Assembly: GCA_964619675.1 (NCBI GenBank)
Contig: CAZUEO010000009.1
Location: forward strand, 139-64,138
DNA from: an uncultured Planctomycetaceae bacterium
GTDB taxonomy: Bacteria; Planctomycetota; Phycisphaerae; Sedimentisphaerales; UBA12454
DNA: 64,000 nucleotides
Direction: 5' to 3'
Of this stretch, positions 14,047 through 42,962 are shown in pieces. The translations under genes and the position numbers were made by a program. The first letter of the stretch is position 1. The number at the start of each line of letters is the position of its first letter. Under the pieces are notes generated by a model, which was given only the letters and a program-made list of their open reading frames with translations, was not told where the DNA came from and did not search any database.

Positions 14047-14053
14047 TGATAAG

Positions 14054-14872: not shown

Positions 14873-14878
14873 ATAAAA

Positions 14879-19763: not shown

Positions 19764-20738
19764 ATGCGAAACAATCTGGAAATATCGGTAGTTATCCCGG
19801 TTTTTGACGAGCAGGAGAATCTGGAAAATATATATCAGCAGGTTTCGGATTCCCTGCAAAACAAGTACTCATTTGAGATAATATTCATAGATGACGGCAG
19901 CACAGATGGCAGTCGAAAAGTTCTTGAGAAGATACACCTTAAAGACTCAAAAGTGAAAGTAATAATATTCCGCCGAAATTTCGGTCAGACTGCGGCGATG
20001 AGCGCAGGTTTCGACCACGCGAAAGGCCAGATAATAGTTCCGCTCGATGCCGATGGCCAGAATGACCCTGCGGATATTCCGGCGCTGGTAGAGAGGCTAA
20101 AGGAAGGCTATGATATAGTAAGCGGCTGGCGAAAAGACCGAAAGGACAGAACCATCAGCAGAAAAATCCCGTCAGTAATGGCTAACTGGCTGATTGGAAA
20201 AATGACCGGCGTTAAACTTCATGATTATGGATGCAGCCTTAAGGCATACAAACGCGAAGTACTTGAAACGATTAACTTATACGGCGAGATGCACAGATTT
20301 ATACCTGCAATTGCAAGCTGGTCAGGTGCAAGAATTACGGAAATGGTTGTAAATCATCGGCCAAGAGTTGCCGGCGTCGCAAAATACGGCCTTGAAAGGA
20401 CAATGAAGGTATTTCTTGACCTTATGACGGTCAAGTTTTTAGGTTCTTATGCCACTAAACCCATATATATATTCGGCGGCTTGGGGGTTTTCAGCAGTAT
20501 AGGCGCTATCATCTGCAGCTTTATCGTATTATATATGAAATTTATAAGCGAGGAACACCTTGGAATGAACCGCAACCCACTTCTGCTGCTTACGGCAATT
20601 CTTATAATCACGACCATTCAGCTTATACTTATGGGGCTGCTTGCAGAAATGATTGTAAGAACTTATCACGAATCTCAAAAACGACCGATATACGTGATTC
20701 GAGAAATCCTCGAGTCAGCCGTCGGAGACGGTAAATGA
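19764..20738 (+). CDS. family 2 glycosyltransferase, polyprenyl-phosphate sugar synthase type (GtrB/ArnC-like)
   Basis: SVVIPVFDEQENL, FIDDGSTDGS, PLDADGQNDP, GEMHRFIP, plus two C-terminal TM helices. Confidence 0.88.
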   Translation: MRNNLEISVVIPVFDEQENLENIYQQVSDSLQNKYSFEIIFIDDGSTDGSRKVLEKIHLKDSKVKVIIFRRNFGQTAAMSAGFDHAKGQIIVPLDADGQNDPADIPALVERLKEGYDIVSGWRKDRKDRTISRKIPSVMANWLIGKMTGVKLHDYGCSLKAYKREVLETINLYGEMHRFIPAIASWSGARITEMVVNHRPRVAGVAKYGLERTMKVFLDLMTVKFLGSYATKPIYIFGGLGVFSSIGAIICSFIVLYMKFISEEHLGMNRNPLLLLTAILIITTIQLILMGLLAEMIVRTYHESQKRPIYVIREILESAVGDGK

Positions 20739-22600
20739 CAATGGGCAGGGTAAAGGGCAGACCGGTGCATAAAGATAAGAAACCGGCTGCAGTAACAGGC
20801 AAATCCGGCTCGGAGCTGACTGCAATTATCCTTGTTGCGATTCTTGCAGGAATACCATTTGGAATCGGCCGATATCTCGAGCTCAACTACCCTGACCCAT
20901 ACGACAGCGCTGCTAATGTTTATTCTGCACAACATATCCTCAATGGGGCAAGAATCGGGATTGATGAAAAGCCAAGCGCTGCTCTGGGAACATTATTAGT
21001 CAATATTTTAGGCGTTTGGCTACTGGGGTTCAGGGAATTAGGACCTAAACTGATTCAAATGATTTGTCAAGCAAGCGCTTTAATAGCAATGTATATTGCT
21101 CTGCGGAAACTGCTTGGCAAACTGCCGGCGGCTGTCAGTGTAATCGTTGCTTCAATTTATATCTCATCCCCTCTTATCGCCAAGTTCGGTAATGTCAAAG
21201 AGCAATATATGATAACTTGTATGGTAACGGCGATGAGTCTGTTTGTGCTCAGACAAACAGGTGGAAGCTGGTGGTACAGCTTTCTGGCCGGTGCCATTGT
21301 CAGTTGGGCACCCCTTTTCAAGGAGACAGGCTTATCCGCAATAGGAGCAATCGGGTTATTTGTAATACTGCAACCGATATTCCGTCACAGAACATGGAAA
21401 CAGACTGGGATTGATATTGCCCTGCTGCTGGCCGGTGCAACAGCAGCAATGGCACCCTTGTACGTCTGGATAATCGGATGGAAGGTTCAAATATCATTAC
21501 CGTATTCATTTGTGTGGGAGAATGTCAAAGGACTCCTACCAGGACACCAGGCATTGCCACAGGCGGACACTTATGTCTCGTCACTAAGGGCAACGATACC
21601 TTTTTCCCAGCAGTGGCCGCGGGTACTTCGATTTTATCTCGCCTTGTGTCTGCCGGTCTCGCTGGCTCTTGGTTCAATCGCTGCAAGAATTGGAAAAATG
21701 GTATTAAATCCCTCGAAAAAATCCGAACCCGCAATTGTCGGACGCGATTATGACCGGTTCGTTCTGCTGTTTGCAATCTGGTGGATTCTTGATATGGCTT
21801 TTGTCTGGATAAGCCCGGCCTCTTATGAGCAGTATTACCTGCCGTTAACCGCCTCCGGTGCAATGACAGGCGGTTATCTCATAGCCGTCTGGCGAGACAA
21901 ACTTATCAGTGCAGTATTCAAAACCAAATGGGTTATTACTGGAATCGGCAGTCTTATTCTGATGGTGATTATGTCCTGGCATATATTCTTCGGTCTGCCG
22001 AGAAGTCCGTACTCAGGTATAAAGTACCCTGCAAAACGAAACGGTTACGTTCAGCGATGGAATGAAGTCTGGCACCGCAAGCACGCGGGCTGGAAAGGGC
22101 CTTGGGAGATTGCGGGTGAGTATGTCCGCGACCATACACAGCCGAGCGATAAAATTTATGTATGGGGCTGGGTGCCGAGCATATATCTGTCGGCACAAAG
22201 GTTCTGTCCTGCTCCCAAAGCCTTTGAAAGTGAAATGCACACACGACCTCCCGAGCAGCTCGAACAGATAATCGATGGACTGCTCGGCTACTTTAACAAA
22301 GAAATGCCCAAATATATCGTGGACAGCAGAAAACAGCATTTGCCGCTGGACCGGCTTAAATTCGAGCTTTGGCCTATTGTAAACTATTCCAGCCGAGGAC
22401 AACCGCAGTTTTTACAGCTTGACCCGCAAATAGTGGCCGAATTTGAAAGGCAATGGGAGCAGATAACACGGGACAGATTTGGAAACGATGAGGCTCGTAG
22501 ATTCGAGATTATGGGCAAATTCAGAAAATTCATTAGAGAAAATTACGATATAGTCCAGATGTTCGGCAATTGTGTTGTTTTCAAACTGAAGAAAAAATAA
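20735..22600 (+). CDS. polytopic GT-C-type glycosyltransferase (ArnT/PMT family 39-like)
   Basis: 621 aa with more than 10 hydrophobic helices. Early loop has a DE motif (RIGIDEKPSA). Soluble C-terminal domain. 4-nt overlap with the upstream GT2. Confidence 0.6.
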   Translation: MTMGRVKGRPVHKDKKPAAVTGKSGSELTAIILVAILAGIPFGIGRYLELNYPDPYDSAANVYSAQHILNGARIGIDEKPSAALGTLLVNILGVWLLGFRELGPKLIQMICQASALIAMYIALRKLLGKLPAAVSVIVASIYISSPLIAKFGNVKEQYMITCMVTAMSLFVLRQTGGSWWYSFLAGAIVSWAPLFKETGLSAIGAIGLFVILQPIFRHRTWKQTGIDIALLLAGATAAMAPLYVWIIGWKVQISLPYSFVWENVKGLLPGHQALPQADTYVSSLRATIPFSQQWPRVLRFYLALCLPVSLALGSIAARIGKMVLNPSKKSEPAIVGRDYDRFVLLFAIWWILDMAFVWISPASYEQYYLPLTASGAMTGGYLIAVWRDKLISAVFKTKWVITGIGSLILMVIMSWHIFFGLPRSPYSGIKYPAKRNGYVQRWNEVWHRKHAGWKGPWEIAGEYVRDHTQPSDKIYVWGWVPSIYLSAQRFCPAPKAFESEMHTRPPEQLEQIIDGLLGYFNKEMPKYIVDSRKQHLPLDRLKFELWPIVNYSSRGQPQFLQLDPQIVAEFERQWEQITRDRFGNDEARRFEIMGKFRKFIRENYDIVQMFGNCVVFKLKKK

Positions 22601-23737
22601 ATGAATATCTTAATGTTGAATTATGAATTTCCTCCCATAGGAGGTGGTGCAGGTAAAGTGCATCTGAATATGCTCAGGGAATACTCAAAACAAAAAGACC
22701 TGAACATCGACGTATTGACCTCGGCACCACAACCATCAAATCTCATTATCGAATTTTCTGATAACGTAAATATTCATAAAGTCGGTATTCATAAAAAAAA
22801 TCTGCATTTCTGGAGAAAAACAGAAATTCTTGAGTGGATTATCAAGGCCGGCCATTATTATAAAAAACTGATTAAGCACAAAAAATACGACCTGGTTCAT
22901 TCTTTTTTCGGATTTCCTACAGGCTGGTTCTGCTATAAAAGCAGAAACAAGCTGCCTTATATGGTTTCACTAAGAGGTTCGGATGTTCCCGGCAAAAATT
23001 TAAGATTTGCATTCGAATACAAGCTGCTGGGAATCATATTTAAAGCTATCTGGAGAAACGCTTCTGTCCTGATAGCATGCAGTAAGGGATTAAAGCAAAG
23101 AGCATTAAAATTTTACCCTCAGGCAAAGATAGATGTTGTGCCAAACGGTGTTGACATCGAAAAATTTCACCCTGCACCAGAAAACAAGGTAAAAAAATCC
23201 AACATAATCAGTCTTATCACCGTCGGCAGACTAAGTATTACCAAAAGAGTCGACATTTTAATCGATGCGGTCAAAATTCTTGTCGAGCAGGAGAAAAACG
23301 TCAAGTTGCTCATTGTCGGCGGAGGCTCCCTTAAAGATTCTCTTGAAAAAATTACCGTTCAGAAAAATCTTGCGGATTTTATTGAATTCAAAGGAATCGT
23401 AGATTCACAGGAAATGCCCCGGCTTTACCAAAATAATGACCTGTATATCAGTGCTACTATGCAGGAGGGAATGAGCAACGCTATGCTCGAGGCAATGGCG
23501 TGCGGTTTGCCAATTATAACAACGCCATGCGAAGGTATTGACGAACTGATAAAGAATAACGGTATAATAGTCAGCCAAGAATCGGCAGAGGCAATTGCAA
23601 AAGCGATATCAGGGCTGGTTATGGATACCGAGAAGATGGAATCAATGTCCAAAGCGGCAAGAAAACACTCCGAAAACTTTACCTGGGAATCTGTTTCGCA
23701 GGCTTATCTGAAACTTTACAAGAAAATTTTACCGTGA
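22601..23737 (+). CDS. family 4 (GT-B) glycosyltransferase
   Basis: EFPPIGGGAGKV N-terminus and the EGMSNAMLEAMACGLPIITT (EX7E) motif. Confidence 0.88.
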   Translation: MNILMLNYEFPPIGGGAGKVHLNMLREYSKQKDLNIDVLTSAPQPSNLIIEFSDNVNIHKVGIHKKNLHFWRKTEILEWIIKAGHYYKKLIKHKKYDLVHSFFGFPTGWFCYKSRNKLPYMVSLRGSDVPGKNLRFAFEYKLLGIIFKAIWRNASVLIACSKGLKQRALKFYPQAKIDVVPNGVDIEKFHPAPENKVKKSNIISLITVGRLSITKRVDILIDAVKILVEQEKNVKLLIVGGGSLKDSLEKITVQKNLADFIEFKGIVDSQEMPRLYQNNDLYISATMQEGMSNAMLEAMACGLPIITTPCEGIDELIKNNGIIVSQESAEAIAKAISGLVMDTEKMESMSKAARKHSENFTWESVSQAYLKLYKKILP

Positions 23738-24645
23738 AAACATTCTGCATAACAATCGATACCGAACCGGATTGCGATATTCACTGGAAAAGATCGCAGC
23801 CACTATCCTTCGAGTCTGTTTTGTCCGGCATTCCTTATATTCTACGGCCTATCTGGGATTTATATGGAATCAGGCCGGTATATTTCGTTTCTCCGGAAGT
23901 AATCAACAACAATCAATGCTGCCAGGCACTAAAAAACGAAATTAAATCAGGAGCAGAAATAGGCACGCACCTGCATTCGGAGTATGTAGAGCCCCAGATA
24001 AAACATAATCAGGCAGATGGAACTGCAAGCGATGAATTTCCCTGCTTTGCTTACAGTGAGGCAATAGAATTTGAAAAAATAAAAAATCTTACCAACTCAA
24101 TAAAGCAGAATTTAAATATTCAGCCTGTTTCCTACAGAGCCGCAAGATACGGAGCGGATTTATCAACTATAAAATCTCTTGAGAAACTGGGCTATAAAGT
24201 GGATAGTTCCGTTACGCCGAACATTAACTGGTCTTCTATCGGAGGGCCAGACCATTCAGCCGCATTAAAACAGCCATATTTCGTTAACCACGAAAACCTA
24301 TATCGCGCCGGCAATATGAAAATCCTTGAAGTGCCAATCACTATTTCGAAAAAACGACTGCCTTTGCTGCCTGACAAATGGCTGTTTTACCGCTGGCTAA
24401 GACCGAGCCATATGACCATTTTTGAGATGAAAATGGTAGTAAACGAGCTTCTTGCCAATTTTGAAAATCCCGTTTTAAATATGATGTTTCATTCAATGGA
24501 AATAATTGTCGGCAAAACGCCGTTTGTGCGCACTAAGTTTGAACAAAAATTTTTCCTGCGAAGACTTGAAAAAATCATACAATATATGACAAAAAAGGAC
24601 TTCAGAAATAAAACTCTTAAAGAAATTTACGATGAAAAATTATGA
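23734..24645 (+). CDS. putative polysaccharide deacetylase-like (CE4-like) protein
   Basis: FCITIDTEPD N-terminus and a GTHLHSEY His cluster. The assignment is weak. Confidence 0.4.
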   Translation: MKTFCITIDTEPDCDIHWKRSQPLSFESVLSGIPYILRPIWDLYGIRPVYFVSPEVINNNQCCQALKNEIKSGAEIGTHLHSEYVEPQIKHNQADGTASDEFPCFAYSEAIEFEKIKNLTNSIKQNLNIQPVSYRAARYGADLSTIKSLEKLGYKVDSSVTPNINWSSIGGPDHSAALKQPYFVNHENLYRAGNMKILEVPITISKKRLPLLPDKWLFYRWLRPSHMTIFEMKMVVNELLANFENPVLNMMFHSMEIIVGKTPFVRTKFEQKFFLRRLEKIIQYMTKKDFRNKTLKEIYDEKL

Positions 24646-25255
24646 AAGATATAAATCCGTAAGCACTGCCGATTACGACAAAAAGACTTTTATGTTCTGG
24701 CTTTGCCGAGTACCTTCAGACAAAAAAATACTCCCATACATATCCGGTCTGAAGAATAAAAAAATCCTCGATGTCGGTCTTGGCACAGGCTATTACGCAA
24801 AAATGCTAATTAAAAATAACAACGTCATCGGTGTCGACCAGAACATCCATCTTTGCAGATTGCCTATCCGGCTGTATCAAGGTGATGCAACACAGCTTTC
24901 AAAAATCGTTAAAAGCGAAAAATTTGATGTTGTGTTTTCGACGTGGATGACGGAATATTTGAATCCTGAACAATTAAGTGCCTTCTTAAGTGAGGCCAAA
25001 AAAGTTTTAAACGAAAATGGAACATTCATCAGCACATTTATTTCAAATTATTGTTTAGGCTACGCCTATATAAAACTTGCAAAAACATTGAAGAATATCG
25101 ATAAATATTACTATAGTAAAAAACAGATATTGGAACTCATCAGCCAGGCAGGCTTCAAAGATATCGAAATCATCAATATAAACTCCTGGCTGAATATTCC
25201 ATGGGCTTATATGGTAACTGCAGAAAAAATGGTAGATGTTCTGGCGGCAATTTGA
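24632..25255 (+). CDS. class I SAM-dependent methyltransferase
   Basis: Motif I ILDVGLGTGYYAKML, VIGVDQ, FDVVFSTWMTEYL. Confidence 0.75.
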   Translation: MKNYERYKSVSTADYDKKTFMFWLCRVPSDKKILPYISGLKNKKILDVGLGTGYYAKMLIKNNNVIGVDQNIHLCRLPIRLYQGDATQLSKIVKSEKFDVVFSTWMTEYLNPEQLSAFLSEAKKVLNENGTFISTFISNYCLGYAYIKLAKTLKNIDKYYYSKKQILELISQAGFKDIEIININSWLNIPWAYMVTAEKMVDVLAAI

Positions 25256-25324
25256 TAACATGGTGCATTATAATTGATGTGTAAATTAAAAAAAATCATA
25301 AGGTGGTTTTAAGGAGATAGAAAA

Positions 25325-26038
25325 TTGGTCAAACAGCTAAACAGCAATGAAAACAAACGGTTATTTGAGGGAATGCCAGACCATGAATATTCAGGCGACC
25401 TGATATGTAACGTGATTGCAGGTATGTCTCGGGCATATACGAAGGGCAAAGTGCTCGATGTAGGGGCTGGAACAGGGGCCTTGCTTAAAGCAATCAAAGC
25501 CAAGGTTGCTATTGGTATTGGTATTGGTATTGGTATTGGTATTGGTATTGATCTTGCTCCAAAATCCGAAGCTGTCCAACGTGGCGATTGCACACACCTT
25601 GATTTTGGCGATTGCAGTTTTGACACCGTCTTTTGCACAGATGTCATTGAACACCTATCTGATAAAGATTTAGCCGCCTGTCTAACCGAAATACACCGAG
25701 TATTAAAACCTGGCGGACACGCAATATTTACCACGAACAACAATGAGCGGTTAGAACAGCGGGCAGTTTGTTGCCCGGAATGTGGATGCCGATTTCACGC
25801 CATAGGTCATTGCCAGGTTTTTAATGAGGAAAGAATAAGGGATGTGTTTCCAAAACTTGGATTTAAAATTTGCAAAGTTCGGGTAGCCAATTTCGGTTTT
25901 ATAGCGACCTTTGGCTGGATGGCCAAGTTATTTTATTTACTACGGTTACACAAATTAAAACCAGTCTACAGAATTACAAGTGATATGTTTTTTGCGGCAA
26001 AAAAAATGGGGCCAAATCAAATAGATATTAAGCAATAG
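25325..26038 (+). CDS. class I SAM-dependent methyltransferase carrying an in-frame (GI)n repeat
   Basis: TTG start 8 nt after AGGAGA. Motif I VLDVGAGTGALL, FDTVFCTDVIEHL, LKPGGHAIF. Cys/His cluster CCPECGCRFHAIGHC. Confidence 0.8.
   Translation: MVKQLNSNENKRLFEGMPDHEYSGDLICNVIAGMSRAYTKGKVLDVGAGTGALLKAIKAKVAIGIGIGIGIGIGIDLAPKSEAVQRGDCTHLDFGDCSFDTVFCTDVIEHLSDKDLAACLTEIHRVLKPGGHAIFTTNNNERLEQRAVCCPECGCRFHAIGHCQVFNEERIRDVFPKLGFKICKVRVANFGFIATFGWMAKLFYLLRLHKLKPVYRITSDMFFAAKKMGPNQIDIKQ
25511..25550. repeat. hexanucleotide microsatellite (ATTGGT)x6 plus partial unit, inside the CDS
   Basis: Six perfect tandem ATTGGT units at 25511-25546, then ATTG. Translates to IGIGIGIGIGIGID. Confidence 0.95.
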
Positions 26039-26130
26039 TCAAAAAAGATTTACTATAATCTCTAAAAAAATATCATAAAAAGCAATACATAATATCCTGA
26101 GACGTAAATATTGTCAGGTATCTTTGAGGA

Positions 26131-27123
26131 TTGTTTTTGAACGAAAGAAATAAAAGAATAGTTAAACTTCTGGTCAGGGTCTTGATTACCTTGTTACTCC
26201 TGACATGGGTCTTTACGAAAATTGATTTCCAGCAGTTTGTTGACATTGCAAGGAAAACCAAGTGGTCTTTTTTGATTTTAAGCTGGATATTGACTCTTTT
26301 CAGCTTCTGGGTGATGTCCTTTACAATGCGCCTTATTATGAAGCGACTGGATTGTGAAGTTAGTACAGGCACCGTTTTTCTTGCATCTGCGATTACCGCA
26401 CTTTATGGAATGATACTCCCCGGCATACTGGACGTGTCTGCGAAATGGTATGTTCTTAAACTTCACACAGGTAAGCCAAGCCATGTGCTTAGCGGTATGG
26501 TGTATAATCAATTCATATCGATTTTGATGATAGTTATTTTTGGCTTGTCTGCATTAATAATATCCAACCCAACCTCGAATTTTAAGTTGCCTTTAATCTG
26601 TATTTTTTTGCTTATAATAACTATTTTATGTTGCCTATTATTACTTAACCGAATCACTGGCCCTAAAGTAACTAATTTTTTTGGTTCAATGTTAAACCGA
26701 CTGCCTGCAAGAATAAATAACGTAGGCCAAAAAATATTGGACCATCTGTCGATATTTCAAACGGCCGAGTGGAAGTTTCATTTACAAATATTATTGCTGG
26801 CCGCGTTTGCAACCTCTTTAGGCATAATAGTTTACGTTTTTGCAGCAAAAGCAGCGGGTATAACAGTTTCGTTCGGGGTTCTCGTATGGCAAAGCTCGCT
26901 TATTTACCTGTTGGGACGGCTGCCGATTTCCGTAGCTAACCTCGGTGTAAGGGAAATTACCATAGTCGGGAGTCTGACTCAATACGGGGTCTCAGCACCA
27001 GAGGCCTTGTTAATGTCAATGGTAGTATTTTCAAACAAGATTATAATGGCGATTTTGGGAGCGATTTATCAAATCTACCTGGTATTTCACGATAACAAAT
27101 CTACTCAAGCCGAAAAACATTAA
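26131..27123 (+). CDS. flippase-like membrane protein (lysylphosphatidylglycerol-synthase TM-domain family)
   Basis: N-terminus RIVKLLVRVLITLLLLTWVFTKIDFQQF and about 8 TM helices. TTG start. Confidence 0.55.
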   Translation: MFLNERNKRIVKLLVRVLITLLLLTWVFTKIDFQQFVDIARKTKWSFLILSWILTLFSFWVMSFTMRLIMKRLDCEVSTGTVFLASAITALYGMILPGILDVSAKWYVLKLHTGKPSHVLSGMVYNQFISILMIVIFGLSALIISNPTSNFKLPLICIFLLIITILCCLLLLNRITGPKVTNFFGSMLNRLPARINNVGQKILDHLSIFQTAEWKFHLQILLLAAFATSLGIIVYVFAAKAAGITVSFGVLVWQSSLIYLLGRLPISVANLGVREITIVGSLTQYGVSAPEALLMSMVVFSNKIIMAILGAIYQIYLVFHDNKSTQAEKH

Positions 27124-28855
27124 TGAATCTACCGTTACTCCTGATTTGTGTTATGAATTTATAAGGGCCTGCATCCTTGGTATTAATCAGGAAGGGTATT
27201 GTTTTGTGAAGGTTTAGAGCGCGGTCGCCCCACGGGTCCTTGCTAAGACCTTCTCTGCTTGCCCAGCAGACATAGGTAACATTTTTCTCTCTAAGTTTTT
27301 CCACAAGCTGCTCCGGACTATCAGCATAAGGAAAATTGATAAAACATTCGGCAGACCGGGGGACAAATATAGCCACCGTCTCATGCATATATACCACCAT
27401 TTTCTCGTCCGGTTTGGCATTGTCGGCATACCAGTCAGCCAGATATTTAAATTCAATGTCCTGCTGGCCGTCCCCCAGCAAAGGCGCAATGGAAAACTGA
27501 CTCGACAGTATTACAGGAATAATTACTGCTGCAATCACCGCATCTGACAATAAATGCCTGAATTTGTACAGAAAAGCTCTGGATAATACGATCAGAATAA
27601 TCACAGAAATCATAATAAAGGGCAAAAATCTGACCGCAGGACAAATCGCTGCCAATTGTCGTAAATAAGACACAAGAGGAGTTATTAAAAATAAAGCGAT
27701 AATTATCATAACTGCCTGAAAAACCATAATTACAACGCCGGGAAAATGTAATTTGTCATTTACAATGTTCCAGAACTGCCTTACGCCGAATATACCTATC
27801 AGCAGAGCTATCCAGGAAATTGTTGAATGATACCTGGGAATCGGATAAGGATAATAGGCATGAACAAGAAAATAAGGGACAAAGAAAATCAACAAGATAA
27901 ATATGAGTCGGTTTCTTTTTATAAGACCATAGACTGCCCCAAATGCAAAAGTCACCAGTGCCGTGAATTTACTGACAGACCATAACGTTTCAAACGCTTC
28001 CCGGCCTGACTTAGGGTCTATCATAAGCAAAGGTCTGAAACCCACATTCCACATCAGGCCCAAATGCTTTACTATTCCTGTACGTTCCTGACGTGTCTTG
28101 AGAAAATACTGTGTATGTCTTTTTGTAAAAACCGCCAGATAATGATCGGTGGAGGTTCCAATGTCGGTATACAGGAAAGTGCCCAAAAGCCACAACATCA
28201 GAGGAATAGAAGCCAGCACAGAGTAAACAAACGCAATAATCCTCTCCTTGTTCGTTTTTTTGTAAATCATATCCATTACAAACGCAGCAAGTATCAGTGC
28301 GGCGCCTTCATATCTTACCATCGTTGTTATAGAGGCCGTCAGATACGCCCAGCTTGAATTTCTGCAGATGAGATATATCGTCAGCAAAACAAAAAACAGC
28401 AGGGGCATTTCAGCCAGAGGCTCCCTGAGCATATATAGTGTCCAGGGAGTAATCGAGACAATTATAGCAAGCCATATGGCGCCCCTGCCAATCAGTCTCT
28501 TGCCGATTAACCACAGAAGAATAAGATTCAACGGATTAAGAATGGAATTCAGCAGCCAGCCCCCTCTTAAATCAGGAAACCTTCCTCCCGCCAGTTTGCC
28601 GAAAAGAATCTGCAGAACACCCGTCACAGGCCCTCGTTTAAAATCTGATGGACGCTGGAAAGATAAAATCTCACGCCCCGTTTGTACAAAGGCGGGAAAA
28701 TCGGATATCGGTACAATCTTATGCCCAAAAAGAATAAAACTCTGATAAATACCGACAGCCACCAAAATACAAACTGCAAAATACTCAAAGTATTTATCCT
28801 GTTTGTCCGTGTTTATCTTTACCTCAATATGCTTTGACCGCTTTTTTGCCTTCAC
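27101..28855 (-). CDS. large polytopic membrane protein, GT-C-like glycosyltransferase candidate
   Basis: 584 aa with more than 10 hydrophobic helices and a soluble C-terminal domain. Last gene of the minus-strand operon. 23-nt convergent overlap with 26131..27123. Confidence 0.45.
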   Translation of the reverse strand: MKAKKRSKHIEVKINTDKQDKYFEYFAVCILVAVGIYQSFILFGHKIVPISDFPAFVQTGREILSFQRPSDFKRGPVTGVLQILFGKLAGGRFPDLRGGWLLNSILNPLNLILLWLIGKRLIGRGAIWLAIIVSITPWTLYMLREPLAEMPLLFFVLLTIYLICRNSSWAYLTASITTMVRYEGAALILAAFVMDMIYKKTNKERIIAFVYSVLASIPLMLWLLGTFLYTDIGTSTDHYLAVFTKRHTQYFLKTRQERTGIVKHLGLMWNVGFRPLLMIDPKSGREAFETLWSVSKFTALVTFAFGAVYGLIKRNRLIFILLIFFVPYFLVHAYYPYPIPRYHSTISWIALLIGIFGVRQFWNIVNDKLHFPGVVIMVFQAVMIIIALFLITPLVSYLRQLAAICPAVRFLPFIMISVIILIVLSRAFLYKFRHLLSDAVIAAVIIPVILSSQFSIAPLLGDGQQDIEFKYLADWYADNAKPDEKMVVYMHETVAIFVPRSAECFINFPYADSPEQLVEKLREKNVTYVCWASREGLSKDPWGDRALNLHKTIPFLINTKDAGPYKFITQIRSNGRFINVFRLE

Positions 28856-28881
28856 TTTTCAAGCTTCTAAAAATTACCATA

Positions 28882-30948
28882 CTATTTATATACCAAACCG
28901 GGCTTGTAAACAAATTTTATATGATGCCGACCCTTATCGACAGCAACCGATTTGAATGTGCCAAAAAGCAATTCTATCTCCTTTTCTTCACCGTTAACAA
29001 ACGCCTTCCAATTATGGTCCCAGTTATCAATGAAACTAACATGTCCCGCCACAGGAGTTTCAATCTCCCATTCCAGTTCATCGCCGGTATATAATAACAG
29101 ATAACCCTGGTTTTTATAATGAAATGAATCCCTCAAAAAATCTATTATATTTTCATAAGAGATAGATTCAGAGAAAAATACTCTCCTTCTGCCTTTCACC
29201 CCAAACAGAATTTCCTGAGCCTGCAAATCATCGGAGTGCCCCTTTAAAAATTTTACATAACGGTCAAAATACCAGCTCGGCAATACGCTAACATTAAAGA
29301 CAGGGCCAAGAGAAATGGAATTTTTACGATTTATTCTCGAATAACTGAACGATGCCTGATTTATGGCATCAACATCAAGCTTTATGCGTTCTTTCATGAC
29401 CCTCCCCTCGTAAGTCCAACTATGAGTTCCAACAGGCCACATCTCGCAAACGCTGATGACTATCAGCAGAATAGTAACTACGCCCAATATTTTACTCGAT
29501 TCCAGGGTATATTTTTTACTAACGGCCAATATCAACAAAACGACAGCAAAGGCCGGAATTCCCAAATACACGAACCACACATTATATGGCCAGACATTCC
29601 GGAACCAGTCTTTCCACTGCGTATCATATACTTTATTCGAAAGCAGATAAAGCTGAGTACACAGAATTGCAATATAAATCATAGCCAGCGTTATAATCAT
29701 CCCGTATCTTTTATAGAAACTTTTGCCTGCTGGCCGTCCGGAACCAGAAATCAGACTTTCAAAATGATTAAAAGACAACGATAACAGCCAGGCCAGTATC
29801 GGCAAAAGAATAATACTCAATCTGCCCCAGACGCGAAGACTGGAAAAACCCGGCATATATTTCCATAAGAATATAAAAAGATACGAATATTTACCATAAC
29901 TTATGTAGCTTATTATTCCAATCCAGAGAACAAAAAATATTTTTACCGCCGGTTCCTTCGTAAAATTTGTAAACAAATATAAAAGAACTATTAACAAAGC
30001 CGTAATACTGAAAAAATACCAGCCTTCGGCTTCCGCAGCGGGCGGATAAACCAGCGAACCAATTGTATCAACAAGATTAAATAGATAGTAATCCGTCGAG
30101 TAATCAAAATCCCTGCCCGTTCGATCTGTTGTTTGAGACATCAGATTTTTAACACCTAATAAATACGGACCGCAAACAAGAGCCACTAATACCGCACAAA
30201 CAGCGAAAGTATAAATAACCTTTTTCCATTTGATTGAATCTATACCAAATAAGCGCAGGCGGAGCGGCTTAATAAGGAAAAGAAGGAAATACGGTACGAA
30301 TAAAAACTGGGAATAATAAACATAATACAGATATCCCGCCGTGCAAAAACAAACAAGTGAGACAACAAGAGTTATACCGCCCCAAAGACTGTCTTTAAAA
30401 GACTGACTTTTAAATATTCTTGTAATCGCATAGAGCACCCATGGATACCAGGCGGCTGTATGTACGGCGTTGGGAAATCTCAATATCTCTGTTATTTTAA
30501 AGCTCACCGAAATAATAATAGTACTAAGAATCACGGCTCTTGTATTTTTGTTAATCAACCGAAGCCATTTATAAATACCAAGAGCAAATATTGAAATGCC
30601 GATTATAGTAAAAAACTGATGGTTTATCGGATTGTAACCGCCGGATATTTTATACCACACAACCAGCGGCAGATTCAGGGGATAAAATACCTGAGCGAAC
30701 GGATTTATATAAAATGGGAAACCGGCGCCTTCGGAAGGAGACCAAAGGGGAAATTTAAGTTCAGCCAGACATGCAAGCAAATAGACTTTATAGTTATAGT
30801 ACAGCATAATAAAATCATTGCCTATGGCAGTATATTGACTGTTTATTGGCAGGATTAGACGAAACAAATATATTAGCGGCCAGAGAAAAATAAAAACGCC
30901 GACAGGGTATTTAAAACCGTTTGTTTGTCTACTCTTTTTATCTTTCAA
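28882..30948 (-). CDS. large polytopic membrane protein, YfhO/GT-C-like glycosyltransferase candidate
   Basis: 688 aa with many TM helices and a C-terminal beta-rich soluble domain. 4-nt overlap with the upstream GT2-MT gene. Confidence 0.45.
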   Translation of the reverse strand: MKDKKSRQTNGFKYPVGVFIFLWPLIYLFRLILPINSQYTAIGNDFIMLYYNYKVYLLACLAELKFPLWSPSEGAGFPFYINPFAQVFYPLNLPLVVWYKISGGYNPINHQFFTIIGISIFALGIYKWLRLINKNTRAVILSTIIISVSFKITEILRFPNAVHTAAWYPWVLYAITRIFKSQSFKDSLWGGITLVVSLVCFCTAGYLYYVYYSQFLFVPYFLLFLIKPLRLRLFGIDSIKWKKVIYTFAVCAVLVALVCGPYLLGVKNLMSQTTDRTGRDFDYSTDYYLFNLVDTIGSLVYPPAAEAEGWYFFSITALLIVLLYLFTNFTKEPAVKIFFVLWIGIISYISYGKYSYLFIFLWKYMPGFSSLRVWGRLSIILLPILAWLLSLSFNHFESLISGSGRPAGKSFYKRYGMIITLAMIYIAILCTQLYLLSNKVYDTQWKDWFRNVWPYNVWFVYLGIPAFAVVLLILAVSKKYTLESSKILGVVTILLIVISVCEMWPVGTHSWTYEGRVMKERIKLDVDAINQASFSYSRINRKNSISLGPVFNVSVLPSWYFDRYVKFLKGHSDDLQAQEILFGVKGRRRVFFSESISYENIIDFLRDSFHYKNQGYLLLYTGDELEWEIETPVAGHVSFIDNWDHNWKAFVNGEEKEIELLFGTFKSVAVDKGRHHIKFVYKPGLVYK

Positions 30949-32477
30949 TTCTGAATTTCCTGTATTTTTTTGTCCTTCGCTTTATAGGCATCATCAAGCA
31001 GATGTTCCAATGTCGGCAAGGGTCTTGCTATAACCGCAATTTGGTAGGAAAACAAAGTTCTTGAAAACAAAATTAAAATCTTATTAATCCAAAGCAAAAA
31101 ACGGGCAGATTTACCTTTCCCCACAGCCACCGGAAACGGTGCCGGAATGCCTTGTTTTTTTACGACCTCATACCCATGAATTTCCAGTGTTTTTACCAAC
31201 GAGTAAAATGTGAACAAACGCGTGTGGTCAAGGTCGAGAATGCCTCTCTTGCCGTAATTAAAGCTGCCGCAAAACAAACTTAACCTGACAGGCAAAAAGG
31301 CGACATTCGCTGTTGTTATGATTATAGTCGGCCTGTCTTTTGAGAATCTTTGTCGCATCACTTTCAGAAATTGCTCCAGCGACTTGAGATGTTCGATAAT
31401 ATCAAGAAGCAGTAAGTAATCGACTTTGCCGAAATCATCGTTAAAATCGTATTTTTCAATATCTGCTTCGATACTCCTGAAGGAATTTTCCTTCACCTGC
31501 GGCTGAATCTGTAAATCGATCGAGATGGTTTTTACTTTTTTATTTTTTAGCTCTTCTGCCATAAAGCCCGGCCCGCAGCCGATATCAATTACTGTTGATT
31601 GGGGCTTGATATTATCCAGTGCAAACTGCTGCGAGCTTGGATACCCAAATTTGCTTCGATAATGAGCGTTTGAATCCTGATAATAATCAAATTTGGGCTG
31701 ATAATACAACCCAAGTCTGTTTAAACGCGATTGTATACAGGATTTAATAATCCGAAACGCATATTTAATTCCGTTAACTCTGCAAATTTCATTTCCGTAG
31801 AAAGTAGGAATAGGAATTTCCTTTATTCTTTTTTTGGTATCTACGAGCTGGACTATGATGTCAGTATCAAAATCGAAATAGTTTGAATTGTATTCAAATG
31901 GAATTTCCGAAAGCGTTTTTACTCTGTAAGCCCGATAACCGCTGTGGAATTCCGACAATTGCGATTTTATAATCCTGTTCTGGATAAAAGTCAGAATCTG
32001 GTTGCCTATCCATTTATATAAAGGCATTTGACCTTTAAGGGCATCGACGCGGTTAATCATACGCGAACCAAAAACCGCATCTGCCTGGTTATTGATAATT
32101 GGTTCTATCATCTTGCCGAGATATTCAGGGGCATATTGTCCATCGCCGTGCAGCAAAACAACTGCATCGAAACCCTGCCGGACAGCGTAGCAATAGCCGA
32201 TTTTCTGATTGCCGCCATAGCCCTGGTTTTCGGGATTATACAGCACCGTAATGAGACGTTCAGGATTAAGCTTCGAGTATTCATAAGCCCTGTAAAAGGT
32301 CCGGTCGAAAGATTGGTCATCTATGATTAACGCCTCGCTGTAATAATTTTCATTTCCCCATATCTCCTTCCCGATGCGGTCAAGAACAGGCTCTATGGTG
32401 TGTTCTGCGTTATAACATACAATAAAAATCAGCACTTTCTTTTTTCCATTTATTTCCATTTTCGCCGCTTCCGTCAT
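30945..32477 (-). CDS. bifunctional GT2 glycosyltransferase (N-terminal) / SAM methyltransferase (C-terminal)
   Basis: GT2: VLIFIVCYNAE, IIDDQSFDRT, LLHGDGQY. MT: VIDIGCGPGFMAEEL, LLLLDIIEHL. Confidence 0.8.
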   Translation of the reverse strand: MTEAAKMEINGKKKVLIFIVCYNAEHTIEPVLDRIGKEIWGNENYYSEALIIDDQSFDRTFYRAYEYSKLNPERLITVLYNPENQGYGGNQKIGYCYAVRQGFDAVVLLHGDGQYAPEYLGKMIEPIINNQADAVFGSRMINRVDALKGQMPLYKWIGNQILTFIQNRIIKSQLSEFHSGYRAYRVKTLSEIPFEYNSNYFDFDTDIIVQLVDTKKRIKEIPIPTFYGNEICRVNGIKYAFRIIKSCIQSRLNRLGLYYQPKFDYYQDSNAHYRSKFGYPSSQQFALDNIKPQSTVIDIGCGPGFMAEELKNKKVKTISIDLQIQPQVKENSFRSIEADIEKYDFNDDFGKVDYLLLLDIIEHLKSLEQFLKVMRQRFSKDRPTIIITTANVAFLPVRLSLFCGSFNYGKRGILDLDHTRLFTFYSLVKTLEIHGYEVVKKQGIPAPFPVAVGKGKSARFLLWINKILILFSRTLFSYQIAVIARPLPTLEHLLDDAYKAKDKKIQEIQN

Positions 32478-33247
32478 TGTTTTTCCAGAACTACCGTTTC
32501 AAACATTCCAAGCCATTTGTTAAAGGGACGAAGACAAACTTCCAGAAGTTTCACAAAGCCGTACATAAACGCAGGGACCAATTGCCTGTAACTCAGTCCT
32601 CCGCTCAGTATATATCGCAAAGGCGTATGAAAACTGATATTTATAATCTTTAAGTTAGGAAACTGCGATTCAAATACTTTCCTGTCTCTCTCGAATATTA
32701 TCCAAGCCAGCGCTCCGTTTGCGTCGGATAGCGGCCCGGCTTTATCCATCTCCCAGCCTGCCGAAGTGTCGAACATTTCATGATGAAAGTTTTTATACAC
32801 AAATCTGCCCCACAGTGTATTGGCAGGCTCTATCATAACGATTTTGCCGCCGCTTTTAAGACATCTTTGCGCTTCAGCCAGAAAAACTGCCGGCCTTTTA
32901 ATGTGATGCAACACATCCATCATAAAAAACGCGTCAACACTGCCGCTTTCAAAAGACATCTCTTCTGCTGAAAATACCATATCCACATTGGCAAGCTTAA
33001 TAATATCAGAGGTTATCACAGCCGGTATGATTTCCTTTATAAACCCGCCTCCGCTGCCCAATTCAACCAGCTTTTCAGCTTTTGGGCCGATTGCTTCTTT
33101 GAAAATTTTATAAAAATCGGCATACAGCTCTCTCAGAAAAACTTTTTTCTTTATAATTTGCGAATGCAGCACCGTTGTCTGAGGGGCATCAAGATTTTTA
33201 ACTTCTTTTACCTCAGGCTGCCTCAGATATTCCAGCAAACTCATCAC
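32474..33247 (-). CDS. class I SAM-dependent methyltransferase
   Basis: LVELGSGGGFIKEI motif I, DAFFMMDVLHHI, LKSGGKIVMIEP. Confidence 0.8.
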   Translation of the reverse strand: MMSLLEYLRQPEVKEVKNLDAPQTTVLHSQIIKKKVFLRELYADFYKIFKEAIGPKAEKLVELGSGGGFIKEIIPAVITSDIIKLANVDMVFSAEEMSFESGSVDAFFMMDVLHHIKRPAVFLAEAQRCLKSGGKIVMIEPANTLWGRFVYKNFHHEMFDTSAGWEMDKAGPLSDANGALAWIIFERDRKVFESQFPNLKIINISFHTPLRYILSGGLSYRQLVPAFMYGFVKLLEVCLRPFNKWLGMFETVVLEKQ

Positions 33248-33248
33248 A

Positions 33249-34652
33249 TTAACCTTTGCCCAGCCACTTTATTTTTTTGAATGCTATCCAGCTCATCTTC
33301 AGCAAAAGCCAGCCGTGCTGGAATCTGCTGATATTTGTAGTTCCATAAGTTCTTGCCTTATAATTTACCGGAATTTCAACGACTTTGAGATTTTGTTTTA
33401 CCGCACCGAAAATCAGGTCGAAATCCCCGAAGGGGTCAAACTCACCGAAATAGGCACGGTTGGCGGCGATAAGCTCGTAATTCTTTTTGCTTATCATTTT
33501 AGTCCCGCACAGCGTGTCCTTGAATCTCTGGCCCAGAATCCAGGTAAATACGGCGCTGAAAAATTTATTTCCAAGCAGATTCAGGAATCTCATTGCCTCT
33601 TTTTCCATAGGATAAACCAATCTTGTACCGTTGATATACTCGCCTTTGCCCTGGCACAATGCCCTGAAAAATTTCGGTAAATCTTCAGGCGGCGCCGTCA
33701 AATCGGCATCCTGTATCACCAACACATCGCCGCCGGCCGCTGCAAAACCTTTTCTAACCGCATCGGCTTTGCCTTTTGCCTGACCCTGATGAATTAATTT
33801 GATATTCCTTTTGGGATGAAGCTTTATCTGCCTTTTTATTTCTTCCACAGTGCCATCGGTGCTATTGCCGTCAACAAAAACAATTTCCGTCTGGCGCCCC
33901 ATCTGAGGTATTCGTTTGATAGCGTCCTCGATATTGCCTCTTTCATTTCTGCACGGCACTATTACAGATACAGAAAGCTCATCTTCAGCTATGCCGGCAG
34001 CGGCAGCCCTTGCAATTATAAGATTTACTAGGTTCAGATGTCTTATACCAGGCAGCAGAGAAAGAAAATAATTGGAAATGGAAGTTATCGGCCAGATTCG
34101 CTTGGGAAGTAAAACATAAGAATCCTGCCTGATTACGTCAAAATCAGCGACATTCAGAAGATTAATTATATCGCTCTGAGCAAGCCAGTTCTGATACTTG
34201 CAGGGCCTTCTCAACCTCAAAAGAGAACCCAGCCTAAGCACAGACTCCCAAAGGTAATTGTAATATGTTACTATAATCCGCGTTTCAGCAGTTGTTGCCG
34301 AACGCATATTTTCAAAAACCTTTTGAATATCTCCCCAGTGTCCCAGCGAATTGCATATAATTATGTAATCGAATTTTTCATTTGTCTTAAACTCATGAGG
34401 GTCGGCAATCTGAAAATCAAGCTTTGGAAATCTCTTTCTCGCCAGCTCGATATTCCCTTTGTCAGGGTCTATTCCCAGCCCGTACGAAGGATTAACCCCT
34501 GCCAGCAAATCGCCGGTTTCGCAGCCGATATGCAAAATCCTGCTGCCGGGCCTTACTATAAATTTATGAATCTTTTCTATCCATCCGTAATAATAGAAAT
34601 TTCTCTTCCTCCATTTCAAAATACCGTTTATGTCGATTTTGTCTTCACTCAT
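33249..34652 (-). CDS. bifunctional SAM methyltransferase (N-terminal) / GT2 glycosyltransferase (C-terminal)
   Basis: MT: ILHIGCETGDLL, GIDPD, YIIICNSLGH. GT2: VSVIVPCRNERGNI, VFVDGNSTDGT, VIQDADLT. Confidence 0.8.
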   Translation of the reverse strand: MSEDKIDINGILKWRKRNFYYYGWIEKIHKFIVRPGSRILHIGCETGDLLAGVNPSYGLGIDPDKGNIELARKRFPKLDFQIADPHEFKTNEKFDYIIICNSLGHWGDIQKVFENMRSATTAETRIIVTYYNYLWESVLRLGSLLRLRRPCKYQNWLAQSDIINLLNVADFDVIRQDSYVLLPKRIWPITSISNYFLSLLPGIRHLNLVNLIIARAAAAGIAEDELSVSVIVPCRNERGNIEDAIKRIPQMGRQTEIVFVDGNSTDGTVEEIKRQIKLHPKRNIKLIHQGQAKGKADAVRKGFAAAGGDVLVIQDADLTAPPEDLPKFFRALCQGKGEYINGTRLVYPMEKEAMRFLNLLGNKFFSAVFTWILGQRFKDTLCGTKMISKKNYELIAANRAYFGEFDPFGDFDLIFGAVKQNLKVVEIPVNYKARTYGTTNISRFQHGWLLLKMSWIAFKKIKWLGKG

Positions 34653-36801: not shown

Positions 36802-37940
36802 TCCCTGACCTCATTTCTTGCCCAGTTATCGGCTGAAAGCAAATCCTTCAGCGTCGCATTTTTCTTTACTTTGTGCTTATTGAGACAATATTCAATAAGT
36901 TCGACAATATTAACAAATTTTATGTTTCCTTCCAGAAATTCTTTGACAGCCGCTTCATTGGCAGCATTAAAGACTGCCGCTGCCGTCCCGCCTGCACGTG
37001 CGGCCTCGTAACCGAGCTTCAGCGCCCTGAACACTTCCATATCCGGCTTTTCAAACGTCAGTTTCCCTGTTTGCTCCAGTTTTAGGTGCCCTGCTATTCC
37101 CTTTACCCTTTTCGGATATGTCAGAGCATATTGTATCGGCAGACACATATCCGGCGCAGACATCTGAGCAATTATTGAACCATCGACAAACTCGACCATC
37201 GAATGCACGATTGACTCGGGGTGTACAAGGACCTCGATTTTTTCCACCGGCACATCAAACAGCCATCTCGCCTCGATTACCTCCAGTGCCTTGTTCATCA
37301 TCGTTGCCGAGTCGATGGTAACTTTTTTGCCCATATTCCAGGTCGGATGCGCCAGTGCCTGCTCAACCGTTACATCTTTAATCTGCTCGGCGCTAAAGCC
37401 CCGCAGCGGCCCCCCGCTTGCCGTCAGGATGATTCTGTTTACTTCTCCTGCCTCTCCCGACCGCATAGCCTGAAAAATTGCCGAATGTTCGCTGTCAACC
37501 GGCAGCAGCCTGGCGTTATTTTCACGCGCAATTTTTGTCAAAAGTTCGCCTGCGACAACCAGCGGCTCTTTATTGGCGATGGCAATAGTTTTGCCTGCCT
37601 GTGCAGCCGACAAAACGGCCTCGAGCCCCGCTGCACCCACAATCGCCGCTATCACTATATCAACATCTCTATCTGATGCCGCAGCGCAGAGCCCCTTCTC
37701 GCCCGTGAGAATCTCAGTATTGACGCCCTGCAGCAAAGCCTTCAATTCGTCAAGTTTCCCGGTATTGGCAACTACTGCCATTTTCGGCCCAAATTTCCTG
37801 ACCTGCTCGGCAAGCAGCTTAACGTTACTACCCGCAGTAAGTGCGACAGCTTCGTAATCGCTGCCGAGCGATTCTATAACTCGCAGGGCATTTGTGCCGA
37901 TTGAGCCTGTCGAACCAAGTATTGCTATTCTCTTGGCCAT
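36780..37940 (-). CDS. dxr: 1-deoxy-D-xylulose 5-phosphate reductoisomerase
   Basis: ILGSTGSIGTN, LPVDSEHSAIFQ, HPTWNMG, VHPESIVHSMVEF. Confidence 0.95.
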   Translation of the reverse strand: MAKRIAILGSTGSIGTNALRVIESLGSDYEAVALTAGSNVKLLAEQVRKFGPKMAVVANTGKLDELKALLQGVNTEILTGEKGLCAAASDRDVDIVIAAIVGAAGLEAVLSAAQAGKTIAIANKEPLVVAGELLTKIARENNARLLPVDSEHSAIFQAMRSGEAGEVNRIILTASGGPLRGFSAEQIKDVTVEQALAHPTWNMGKKVTIDSATMMNKALEVIEARWLFDVPVEKIEVLVHPESIVHSMVEFVDGSIIAQMSAPDMCLPIQYALTYPKRVKGIAGHLKLEQTGKLTFEKPDMEVFRALKLGYEAARAGGTAAAVFNAANEAAVKEFLEGNIKFVNIVELIEYCLNKHKVKKNATLKDLLSADNWARNEVRECLKRKT

Positions 37941-42190: not shown

Positions 42191-42252
42191 TTTTATTTTT
42201 TTACCTTAATTTTTAATTCTCTTCTGTATCCTGTATTCTGAATTCTTATTTC

Positions 42253-42281
42253 ATTTTCCCTCTACCTGCTCTTTTTGTCAA
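42253..42281 (-). promoter_or_regulatory. candidate promoter for the 41798..42190 / 40770..41801 pair
   Basis: On the minus strand: TTGACA (42281-42276), 17-nt spacer, GAAAAT (42258-42253). Confidence 0.3.
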
Positions 42282-42832: not shown

Positions 42833-42962
42833 ACTTTCTTGCCTTTGATTGATAATTATCAACTATCGCTTTTTTTAAAAAATCCGCCGCATGGCGTAAG
42901 CCATCCCATAGGGAGGCGGCTCCACAAATCTTCAATCTACAATCTTCATTCTTCAATTCTGC

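Follow-up and report, generated by a model that had tools for sequence, protein, structure and literature searches.

The scheme of extracytoplasmic glycosylation that comes closest to the system described here has three components: a lipid-phosphate sugar synthase, a flippase and a glycosyltransferase of the GT-C fold (PMC11127046, PMC5836110, PMC8035078). In the GtrA/GtrB/Gtr* systems of O-antigen glucosylation and in the polyprenyl-phosphoribose synthase/MATE/GT136 system (PMC11127046), as would be the case in our locus, a sugar is linked to polyprenyl monophosphate in the cytoplasm and then transferred outside it by a GT-C enzyme. The locus in question spans about 15 kb (positions 19764-34652) of the chromosome of an uncultured member of the Phycisphaerae (Sedimentisphaerales-like) and comprises two convergent sets of genes, twelve in all (g01 to g12); the term window denotes the entire stretch of 64,000 nucleotides that was analyzed. 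It codes for three GT2, three GT-C-type and one GT4 glycosyltransferase domains, five S-adenosylmethionine (SAM)-dependent methyltransferase (MT) domains, one deacetylase-like protein and one MprF-type protein. We propose, with a probability that we put at roughly 0.6, that these genes form an envelope-glycan locus and specify stacked three-component modules of extracytoplasmic glycosylation, whose sugar donors are methylated in the cytoplasm. A listing of open reading frames (ORFs) reproduces all twelve genes as the original prediction from the bare sequence had placed them, and searches against Pfam and NCBIfam recover the five MT and three GT2 domains that it had named (Table 1).

Table 1. 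Genes of the locus and the junction of its two convergent sets, with positions in the window and the evidence for each assignment. TM, transmembrane.
Feature	Position	Strand	Assignment	Evidence
g01	19764..20738	+	GtrB/ArnC-type GT2, putative polyprenyl-phosphate sugar synthase	Pfam Glycos_transf_2 1.2e-34
g02	20735..22600	+	PMT_2 (ArnT/PMT-like) GT-C	PMT_2 (PF13231) 30.2 bits, gathering threshold 26.1
g03	22601..23737	+	Cytoplasmic GT4	Glycos_transf_1 1.7e-35, Glyco_transf_4 1.2e-15; no TM segment
g04	23734..24645	+	Conserved 300-aa domain without a Pfam model, distant NodB/CE4 relative	Profile search
g05	24632..25255	+	Class I SAM-dependent MT, third member of the g03-g04-g05 triad	Methyltransf_25/11 ~6e-12
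g06	25325..26038	+	Class I SAM-dependent MT, variable gene	Methyltransf_23 1.1e-17
g07	26131..27123	+	MprF-type TM protein (flippase-like)	LPG_synthase_TM (PF03706) 4.2e-25, 89.3 bits, gathering threshold 33.4
3' overlap of g07 and g08 (23 nt)	27101..27123	convergent		Read from the sequence
g08	27101..28855	-	GT-C-fold glycosyltransferase, family without a Pfam model	AlphaFold2 model and Foldseek
g09	28882..30948	-	Divergent YfhO-like GT-C	AlphaFold2 model and Foldseek
g10	30945..32477	-	GT2-MT fusion: DPM1/AglJ-like GT2 (1-260) and class I SAM-dependent MT (285-440)	Pfam
g11	32474..33247	-	Class I SAM-dependent MT	Methyltransf_11 1.9e-11
g12	33249..34652	-	MT-GT2 fusion: class I SAM-dependent MT (30-200) and DPM1/AglJ-like GT2 (226-440)	Pfam

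On the side of the synthases, the three GT2 domains most resemble polyprenyl- or dolichyl-phosphate (Dol-P) sugar synthases, in line with the features originally read from them, and a polyprenyl-phosphate acceptor is hence probable. Over its full length g01 matches the NCBIfam models for ArnC (8.7e-62) and PgfS (5.9e-52), albeit below their cut-offs (208.9 bits as against an equivalog cut-off of 529 in the case of ArnC); it has the DAD motif and two C-terminal TM helices (residues 240-258 and 273-291), which, following upon a GT2 domain, constitute the GtrB/ArnC architecture. The curated families closest to the GT2 domains of g10 and g12 are archaeal AglJ, haloarchaeal Dol-P-hexose transferase and mycobacterial PpgS, again with scores under the cut-offs: g10 retrieves AglJ at 4.8e-20 and PpgS at 1e-10, alongside Pfam matches to Glycos_transf_2 (6.5e-19) and Methyltransf_23 (1.1e-8), and g12 retrieves AglJ at 2.1e-29 and Dol-P-hexose transferase at 2.4e-15. 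Unlike g01, g12 has no TM segment and ends in a basic amphipathic helix. The MT domains of g05, g06, g10 (C-terminal), g11 and g12 (N-terminal) all score above the Pfam gathering thresholds and all five have the GxGxG motif I.

The fusion of an MT to a GT2 domain in g12 is a widespread and conserved arrangement. A back-translated pattern scan with one genome per species yielded at least 435 confirmed matches, the best of them at 70-85% identity in metagenome-assembled genomes (MAGs) of Phycisphaerae/Sedimentisphaerales, with full-length homologues at 50-57% in Bacteroidota (the cultured Dyadobacter and Fibrisoma included), Omnitrophota, Elusimicrobiota, Nitrospirota, Desulfobacterota, Acidobacteriota, Verrucomicrobiota, Leptospiraceae and bacteria of candidate phyla. 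Across this family the GT2 motifs, namely DAD and R434/Y436/G437 (R-x-Y-G-x-T), and the amphipathic C-terminal helix are kept in 72-75 of 75 sequences, as are the SAM-binding residues of the MT domain (G43, G47, G60, D62 and D95), with motif I conserved in 73-75 of the same 75; thus, both domains appear to be under selection. The reverse order, GT2-MT as in g10, was found in 57 loci in a metagenome scan. Hence, neither order is peculiar to this locus, and the original view that the reciprocal domain order of the two fusions is unusual is not supported, nor is their portrayal as mirror images: with only about 23% identity between their GT2 domains and 22% between their MT domains (the three GT2 domains of the locus are 23-26% identical in pairwise comparisons and the MT domains at most 36%), the two fusions arose independently, and the idea that one is a circular permutation of the other is ruled out. 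In the literature searched we found no description of an MT-fused polyprenyl-phosphate GT2 of the DPM1/AglJ type paired with a GT-C enzyme, which is no proof of novelty.

On the side of the transferases, g02 has at least eight TM segments and is recognized by the PMT_2 model, though a PDB search with its single sequence gave no useful match. Searches with the single sequences of g08 and g09 against Pfam and PDB likewise gave no usable annotation; for each, homologues were collected, 41 sequences aligned and a structure predicted with AlphaFold2. The g08 model (predicted local distance difference test, pLDDT, 86; predicted template-modeling score, pTM, 0.87) has GT-C enzymes as all its 16 best PDB fold matches in Foldseek, namely STT3, AglB, ArnT, DPY19, ALG9, ALG12 and Pmt4 (E 7e-7 to 5e-3, probability 1.0, TM-score ~0.5), and so does the g09 model (pLDDT 80, pTM 0.85) for its 13 best, which comprise AftA, ArnT, DPY19, STT3 and AftD. 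Transporters come up in the results for these models only at a probability of ~0.1 and a TM-score of ~0.1, and on the strength of the modeled folds a transporter identity of g08 and g09 is ruled out; the three polytopic proteins are GT-C-like, as had been predicted. GT-C enzymes have a catalytic aspartate in the loop after the first TM segment, and in the g08 family D52, situated just after that segment, is invariant in the alignment of 41 sequences. This family numbers at least 460 homologues, none of which has a Pfam domain. In the case of g09, the YfhO model (PF09586) gives a score below its gathering threshold (17.6 bits as against 28.5), confined to the C-terminal 40 residues; however, precomputed annotation assigns PF09586 to about a fifth of the listed homologues with 50-55% identity, one of which bears the name YfhO family protein, so that g09 is clearly related to the YfhO family. 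When profiles of the g08 and g09 families are compared with each other, the match is not significant (probability 9%); thus, the two are not close paralogues.

That these synthases and GT-C enzymes work together is suggested by the way in which they travel together. Within three genes of the g12 homologue, 60 of 78 loci from many phyla code for a protein of at least seven TM segments and at least 400 aa, which is directly adjacent in 42 of the 78; the background for such a large polytopic neighbor, taken from ORFs at least five genes away from the fusion, is 21 of 444. When five of these polytopic neighbors were tested, three gave PMT_2 matches below the gathering threshold (23.9-25.0 bits as against 26.1); C-terminal tetratricopeptide (TPR) repeats were seen in two, of which one was PMT_2-like as well. 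Hidden Markov models of g08 and g09 detected no members beside g12 homologues outside the Phycisphaerae loci, save for a few weak g09-like matches; going by these comparisons the GT-C partner of the MT-GT2 protein varies among phyla. In the more distant Sedimentisphaerales (loci L008, L010-L012, L015 and L019), translated searches (tblastn) and ORF maps reveal a single co-directional operon, g01-g02-g08-g12-[g10-g09]-g11-g03-g04-AsnB-like-g05, bordered by housekeeping genes such as those for iPGM and MutL, from which it follows that the convergent layout of our locus is a lineage-specific rearrangement. In all of these relatives g01 and g02 are adjacent. A small unit of g12, an optional further MT, g11 and g08 occurs alone in L003, L007 and L016-L018, and g11 is found with g12 in the majority of Phycisphaerae loci; some other phyla also have the two together, with 31-49% identity for g11. 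Of 39 g10 loci with enough downstream sequence, 25 have a polytopic protein encoded next, mostly g09-like (700-770 aa, ~11 TM segments), and the g10-g09 pair stands isolated in unrelated contexts in L092-L095. By these sequence associations the locus resolves into the modules g01+g02, g12+g11+g08, an optional g10+g09, and g03+g04+g05, in which g08 would be the partner of g12 and g11. As in the three-component scheme, a GT-C enzyme is encoded with the synthase, judging by the PMT_2 domain of g02, the folds of g08 and g09 and the conserved adjacencies. The examination of synteny that had been called for accordingly separates a core conserved across Sedimentisphaerales from the variable genes g05, g06, g07, g09 and g10.

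The fourth module is a triad of its own in the cytoplasm, with the GT4, g04 and the MT g05 as its members. The original prediction had labeled g04 deacetylase-like, to which our searches lend weak support: the single sequence and a profile of its close homologues match nothing in Pfam or PDB, whereas a broad profile of 96 sequences retrieves six PDB chains, all of the NodB/CE4 type, with 3rxz (3.9e-4) and the Helicobacter peptidoglycan deacetylase 3qbu (9.4e-4) as the best, at E-values that are marginal (3.9e-4 to 5e-2) and over part of the domain only. In the alignment of these 96 sequences E11, H81 and H253 are invariant and D9, D13 and H79 nearly so, a set (D9/E11/D13, H79/H81 and H253) compatible with a metal-dependent hydrolase. 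The assignment as deacetylase-like is plausible but not proven. The family is a large one: a profile run against 1.84 billion representatives matches 1927 representative clusters at E <=1e-3. Other organisms have the g04 domain in fusions with a SAM-dependent MT, with a GT4, or with the two of them arranged as g04-MT-GT4, a pattern that ties g03, g04 and g05 together functionally. In related loci g05 lies downstream of g04 or of the AsnB-like gene.

The two remaining genes of the plus-strand set are less constant. The MprF-type g07, with seven TM segments and a match to the flippase-like domain TIGR00374 (2.6e-5), is confined to the closest relatives (L001/L081, L082 and L085), and g06 has no close homologue in the related loci. 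Within g06 there are 7.5 copies of the hexanucleotide TTGGTA (25506-25550, 97% matches), which in frame encode (Gly-Ile)n just ahead of the predicted beta-2 strand of the SAM-binding fold; such a repeat could be a slippage-prone length polymorphism.

Briefly, we advance the following mechanism for the locus as a whole. On the cytoplasmic face, g01, g10 and g12 would each load a monosaccharide onto polyprenyl phosphate. The fused MT domains of g10 and g12, aided by g11, would methylate the sugar before it leaves the cytoplasm, its likeliest form at this point being the lipid-linked donor. The donors would then be flipped across the membrane, with g07, from its family membership, as the sole candidate in the locus for this step. 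On the periplasmic side, g02, g08 and g09 would hand the sugars to an acceptor, which could be lipopolysaccharide or another polysaccharide, a glycolipid or a protein. The cytoplasmic g03, g04 and g05 would build or modify a part of the same glycoconjugate prior to its export. The order of these events is constrained by topology: SAM-dependent methylation is cytoplasmic, while the active sites of GT-C enzymes face the periplasm, and hence methyl groups must be in place before flipping. In the simplest reading, the MTs would methylate the lipid-linked monosaccharide produced by their own GT2 domain; this would parallel the pentofuranose system, in which epimerases modify the lipid-linked donor before its transfer (PMC11127046).

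Several observations weigh against this proposal. General Pfam scans of the twelve genes, in which the flippase families were not queried by name, found no flippase-type family other than that of g07, and thus no GtrA-, SMR- or MATE-type protein, the gaps between the genes measuring 92 nt at most, and g07 itself is missing from most of the related loci, which means that it is not an obligatory component. No protein of the locus attains an NCBIfam equivalog cut-off. At the position of the DxD motif, where the other GT2 domains have DAD, g10 has GDG, which might indicate that it is impaired or acts in a different mode. The occurrence of g09 without g10 in L010 and L015 makes their pairing preferential rather than absolute. 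Fusions of MT and glycosyltransferase domains are also seen in the cytoplasmic assembly of O-antigen and S-layer glycans, e.g., in the multidomain enzymes of Klebsiella (PMC11231755), and a methylated lipid-linked monosaccharide donor produced by an MT-GT2-type fusion did not turn up in the literature searched.

Certain variations among the relatives bear on what else these loci might do. The closest relative (L081, GCA_041478555.1) has the same convergent layout, with an identical 23-nt overlap of g07 and g08, and this overlap is also present in L082. Amid its MT genes, at 13905-15365, L081 has genes for a B12-binding radical-SAM protein and an AsnB-like amidotransferase, neither of which is present in the window; they may add modifications such as C-methylation or amidation. 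In L004 (8812-9885), as in L006, L007, L013 and L016-L018, a gene of the IF-2B family lies directly upstream of that for the MT-GT2 protein and is itself preceded, in these MAGs labeled as Phycisphaerae or Pirellulales, by a gene for a flavin adenine dinucleotide (FAD)-binding protein. As the IF-2B family includes methylthioribose-1-phosphate isomerase, this neighborhood may link the MT-GT2 protein to methionine/SAM salvage. In L006 (11400-14105) and L009 (5620-8292) the MT-GT2 gene is followed by one for a YfhO-like protein of 890-900 aa with a C-terminal F5/8 type C (discoidin, galactose-binding-like) domain.

A more specific route, to which we assign a low likelihood, would resemble the synthesis of glycosylphosphatidylinositol (GPI) or of phosphatidylinositol mannosides (PIM) and lipomannan (LM): a heavily methylated, lipid-anchored glycan would be started on a membrane lipid by the cytoplasmic GT4, the CE4-like protein as a de-N-acetylase and an MT, flipped as an intermediate by the MprF-type protein and extended in the periplasm by the three GT-C enzymes with O-methyl-sugar-phosphopolyprenol donors from the MT-fused synthases. 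If this were true, the combination of MT-GT2 and GT-C seen across phyla would represent a general and hitherto undescribed means of delivering pre-methylated sugars to the surface.

Alternatively, the MT-GT2 and GT2-MT proteins might be conventional cytoplasmic enzymes that assemble or cap a glycan linked to lipid pyrophosphate, methylating its terminus as in the termination of ABC-transporter-dependent O-antigens or S-layer glycans, with the polytopic proteins acting later and independently. The multidomain enzymes of Klebsiella O-antigen assembly, which combine MT and GT2 domains (PMC11231755), the WbdD-type MT terminator mentioned in PMC11127046, and the additional GT2, GT4, AsnB-like and epimerase genes downstream in related loci would all be in keeping with this. 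However, the curated families nearest to both GT2 domains are Dol-P/polyprenyl-phosphate synthases rather than polymerizing GT2s; the fusions have neither a coiled-coil ruler nor a second glycosyltransferase domain; genes for an ABC exporter, Wzx, Wzy or WaaL are absent from our locus and from the related loci examined; and the frequency of a large polytopic neighbor across phyla is far above its background. We hence regard such a role in assembly or capping as improbable.

A modification of proteins, in which the PMT-, PgfM- or YfhO-like GT-C enzymes would O-glycosylate secreted or surface proteins instead of a polysaccharide or lipid, agrees with several of the matches reported above: g02 falls in PMT_2, which takes its name in Pfam from protein O-mannosyltransferases, one of the models matched by g01 is that for PgfS, part of the streptococcal Pgf system of adhesin glycosylation, and Pmt4 and DPY19 are among the fold matches. 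The TPR repeats at the C-termini of some partners of g12 homologues point in the same direction, as eukaryotic TMTC protein O-mannosyltransferases also bear such repeats. Yet PMT_2 includes ArnT-like lipid A and glycan transferases too, none of the genes of the locus codes for a candidate target protein, and the triad of GT4, CE4-like protein and MT suggests a glycan or glycolipid that is built up rather than modification by a single sugar, all of which makes an exclusive action on proteins unlikely. Finally, we consider it very improbable that the locus is a recently acquired, strain-variable surface-antigen island whose content reflects diversifying selection by phages or grazers rather than one pathway, for although its GC content is low (36-42% in g03-g07 and 38-40% in g09-g10, with 44% for the window), five of its genes are variably present among relatives and the closest relative has the AsnB and radical-SAM insertion, the core (g01, g02, g08, g12, g11, g03 and g04) persists at 40-75% identity across Sedimentisphaerales, the identities of the locus genes parallel those of the flanking housekeeping genes, the rseP-dxr flank is common to L001-L003, L085 and L106, the borders have no integrase, transposase or tRNA, and the variability of the accessory genes fits, without replacing, the proposal of stacked modules.

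The physical layout of the locus is largely as originally described. The two sets of genes converge with their 3' ends overlapping, such that the stop codon of g07 (TAA, 27121-27123) and that of g08 (TAG, the complement of 27101-27103) each lie 23 nt inside the other gene, as read directly from the sequence, and a scan for consensus terminators agrees with the prediction in finding no terminator-like hairpin at this junction. The claim that the genes are joined by overlaps of 1-4 nt stands for the four junctions with 4-nt overlaps (g01/g02, g03/g04, g11/g10 and g10/g09) and fails for the others: g02 and g03 abut directly, g04 and g05 overlap by 14 nt, and gaps separate g12/g11 (1 nt), g09/g08 (26 nt), g05/g06 (69 nt) and g06/g07 (92 nt). 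Base composition, computed as had been suggested, bears out an AT-rich core, inasmuch as g03-g07 and g09-g10 lie below the 44.2% GC of the whole window. This dip is real yet modest, and it is not unique, since further stretches of low GC (36-40%) occur at 41000-44000 and 48000-49000.

The left flank codes for FeoB and a DtxR-type repressor and the right flank for RseP, Dxr and a PocR/AraC regulator, with RuvAB, an amidase, CysRS, FTHFS and FolD farther out; Rfam detected no RNA families in the window. A gap of 19 nt separates the end of rseP from g12, which follows it on the same strand, and the junctions among pocR/araC, dxr and rseP (34672-39203, minus strand) overlap or abut. This tight packing, together with the short spacing, indicates that the minus-strand transcription unit may begin upstream of 34652, and the adjacency may thereby link the synthesis of isoprenoids, the precursors of the lipid carrier, to the glycosylation genes at the level of transcription. 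The RseP homologue itself (34672-36801) is unusually long, at 709 aa, and the two halves of its M50 protease domain lie apart, split by a large insert in which there are at least two PDZ domains. On the other side, a gene for a type I phosphomannose isomerase (14879-15823) lies 4 kb upstream of the locus, with feoB and the dtxR-like gene in between; its role as a source of a mannose precursor is possible but unproven.

If the proposed mechanism is borne out, its significance would extend beyond this locus. The usual explanation for the methylated sugars of bacterial surfaces is that nucleotide sugars, or lipid-pyrophosphate intermediates in the cytoplasm, are methylated. An MT-fused lipid-monophosphate sugar synthase that works with a GT-C enzyme would constitute a different route, in which methylation of the donor precedes the transfer outside the cytoplasm. 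Given that MT-GT2 proteins with at least 50% identity range from Planctomycetota to candidate phyla, the assay of a single cultivable homologue would annotate hundreds of genomes. Of wider value than the locus itself are the cross-phylum MT-GT2/GT-C module, the g08 family of GT-C enzymes that lacks a Pfam model and the g04 family, which is absent from Pfam. MT-glycosyltransferase fusions as such are already known from cytoplasmic O-antigen assembly (PMC11231755); observed here are the domain identities, GT-C folds, modular co-occurrence and conservation of catalytic motifs, whereas the polyprenyl-phosphate acceptor of the GT2 domains, the place of methylation, the flipping by g07 and the pairing of each synthase with a particular GT-C enzyme are inferred, as are the heavily methylated sugars and the decorating role of the original prediction, which the sequence does not show.

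Comparison with known systems indicates that the locus has partial counterparts in several of them. No characterized pathway, which would have spoken against the original prediction, matches it: its proteins remain under the thresholds for the Arn and YfhO families, and a GtrA-type flippase was not among the results of the Pfam scans described above. The mycobacterial methylthioxylose system (Rv0539/Rv0541c), considered as an analogue in which a GT2/GT-C pair delivers a methyl-bearing sugar, was rejected, as the window gives no indication of methylthio-sugar metabolism. With the ArnC/ArnD/ArnT pathway, which modifies lipid A with aminoarabinose (Ara4N), the locus shares an ArnC-like g01 and an ArnT/PMT_2-like g02, whose operon also includes a NodB/CE4-like protein. 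In that pathway the lipid-linked sugar is the substrate of ArnD, a deformylase of the CE4 type; the fusions of g04, in contrast, involve GT4 and MT domains rather than GT2, g01 is far under the ArnC cut-off, and neither the genes of the locus nor the flanking genes scanned have domains like those of ArnA or ArnB, which supply the sugar. The glycosylation of lipoteichoic acid (LTA) in Firmicutes by CsbB/YfhO (GtlA/GtlB) pairs a GT2 synthase with a YfhO-family GT-C enzyme, just as g10 would be paired with g09 (PMC5836110, PMC8035078), whereas the planctomycete that carries our locus is diderm and lacks LTA, the score of g09 is under the YfhO gathering threshold and its partner GT2 has a C-terminal MT.

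The mycobacterial synthesis of PIM, LM and lipoarabinomannan and the eukaryotic synthesis of GPI share with the locus a general logic, namely cytoplasmic GT4 steps, a flip and then several GT-C enzymes using polyprenyl- or dolichyl-phosphate sugars from a DPM1-type GT2, and GPI assembly additionally has a de-N-acetylation step alongside the GT4 steps. The models of g08 and g09 match ALG, PimE, AftA and AftD structures, a homology at the level of fold and family only. The MT fusions have no counterpart in these pathways, and the deacetylase of the locus is CE4-like rather than of the LmbE/PIG-L type. A parallel for the methylation is provided by AglP of archaeal N-glycosylation, a SAM-dependent MT that acts on a dolichol-phosphate-linked sugar at the cytoplasmic face before flipping, and archaeal AglJ is also the best match of the GT2 domains of g10 and g12; however, AglP is a separate protein whose substrate is a lipid-linked oligosaccharide, whereas in our bacterial locus the MT is fused to the presumed synthase of a monosaccharide donor. 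The Gtr-type systems, with which we began, share the GtrB-like architecture of g01, in which two TM helices at the C-terminus come after the GT2 domain. Relative to them, the locus has an MprF-type TM protein, which most of its relatives are without, in place of a GtrA, SMR or MATE protein, and it stacks three pairs of synthase and GT-C enzyme, two of the synthases being free of TM segments and fused to an MT.

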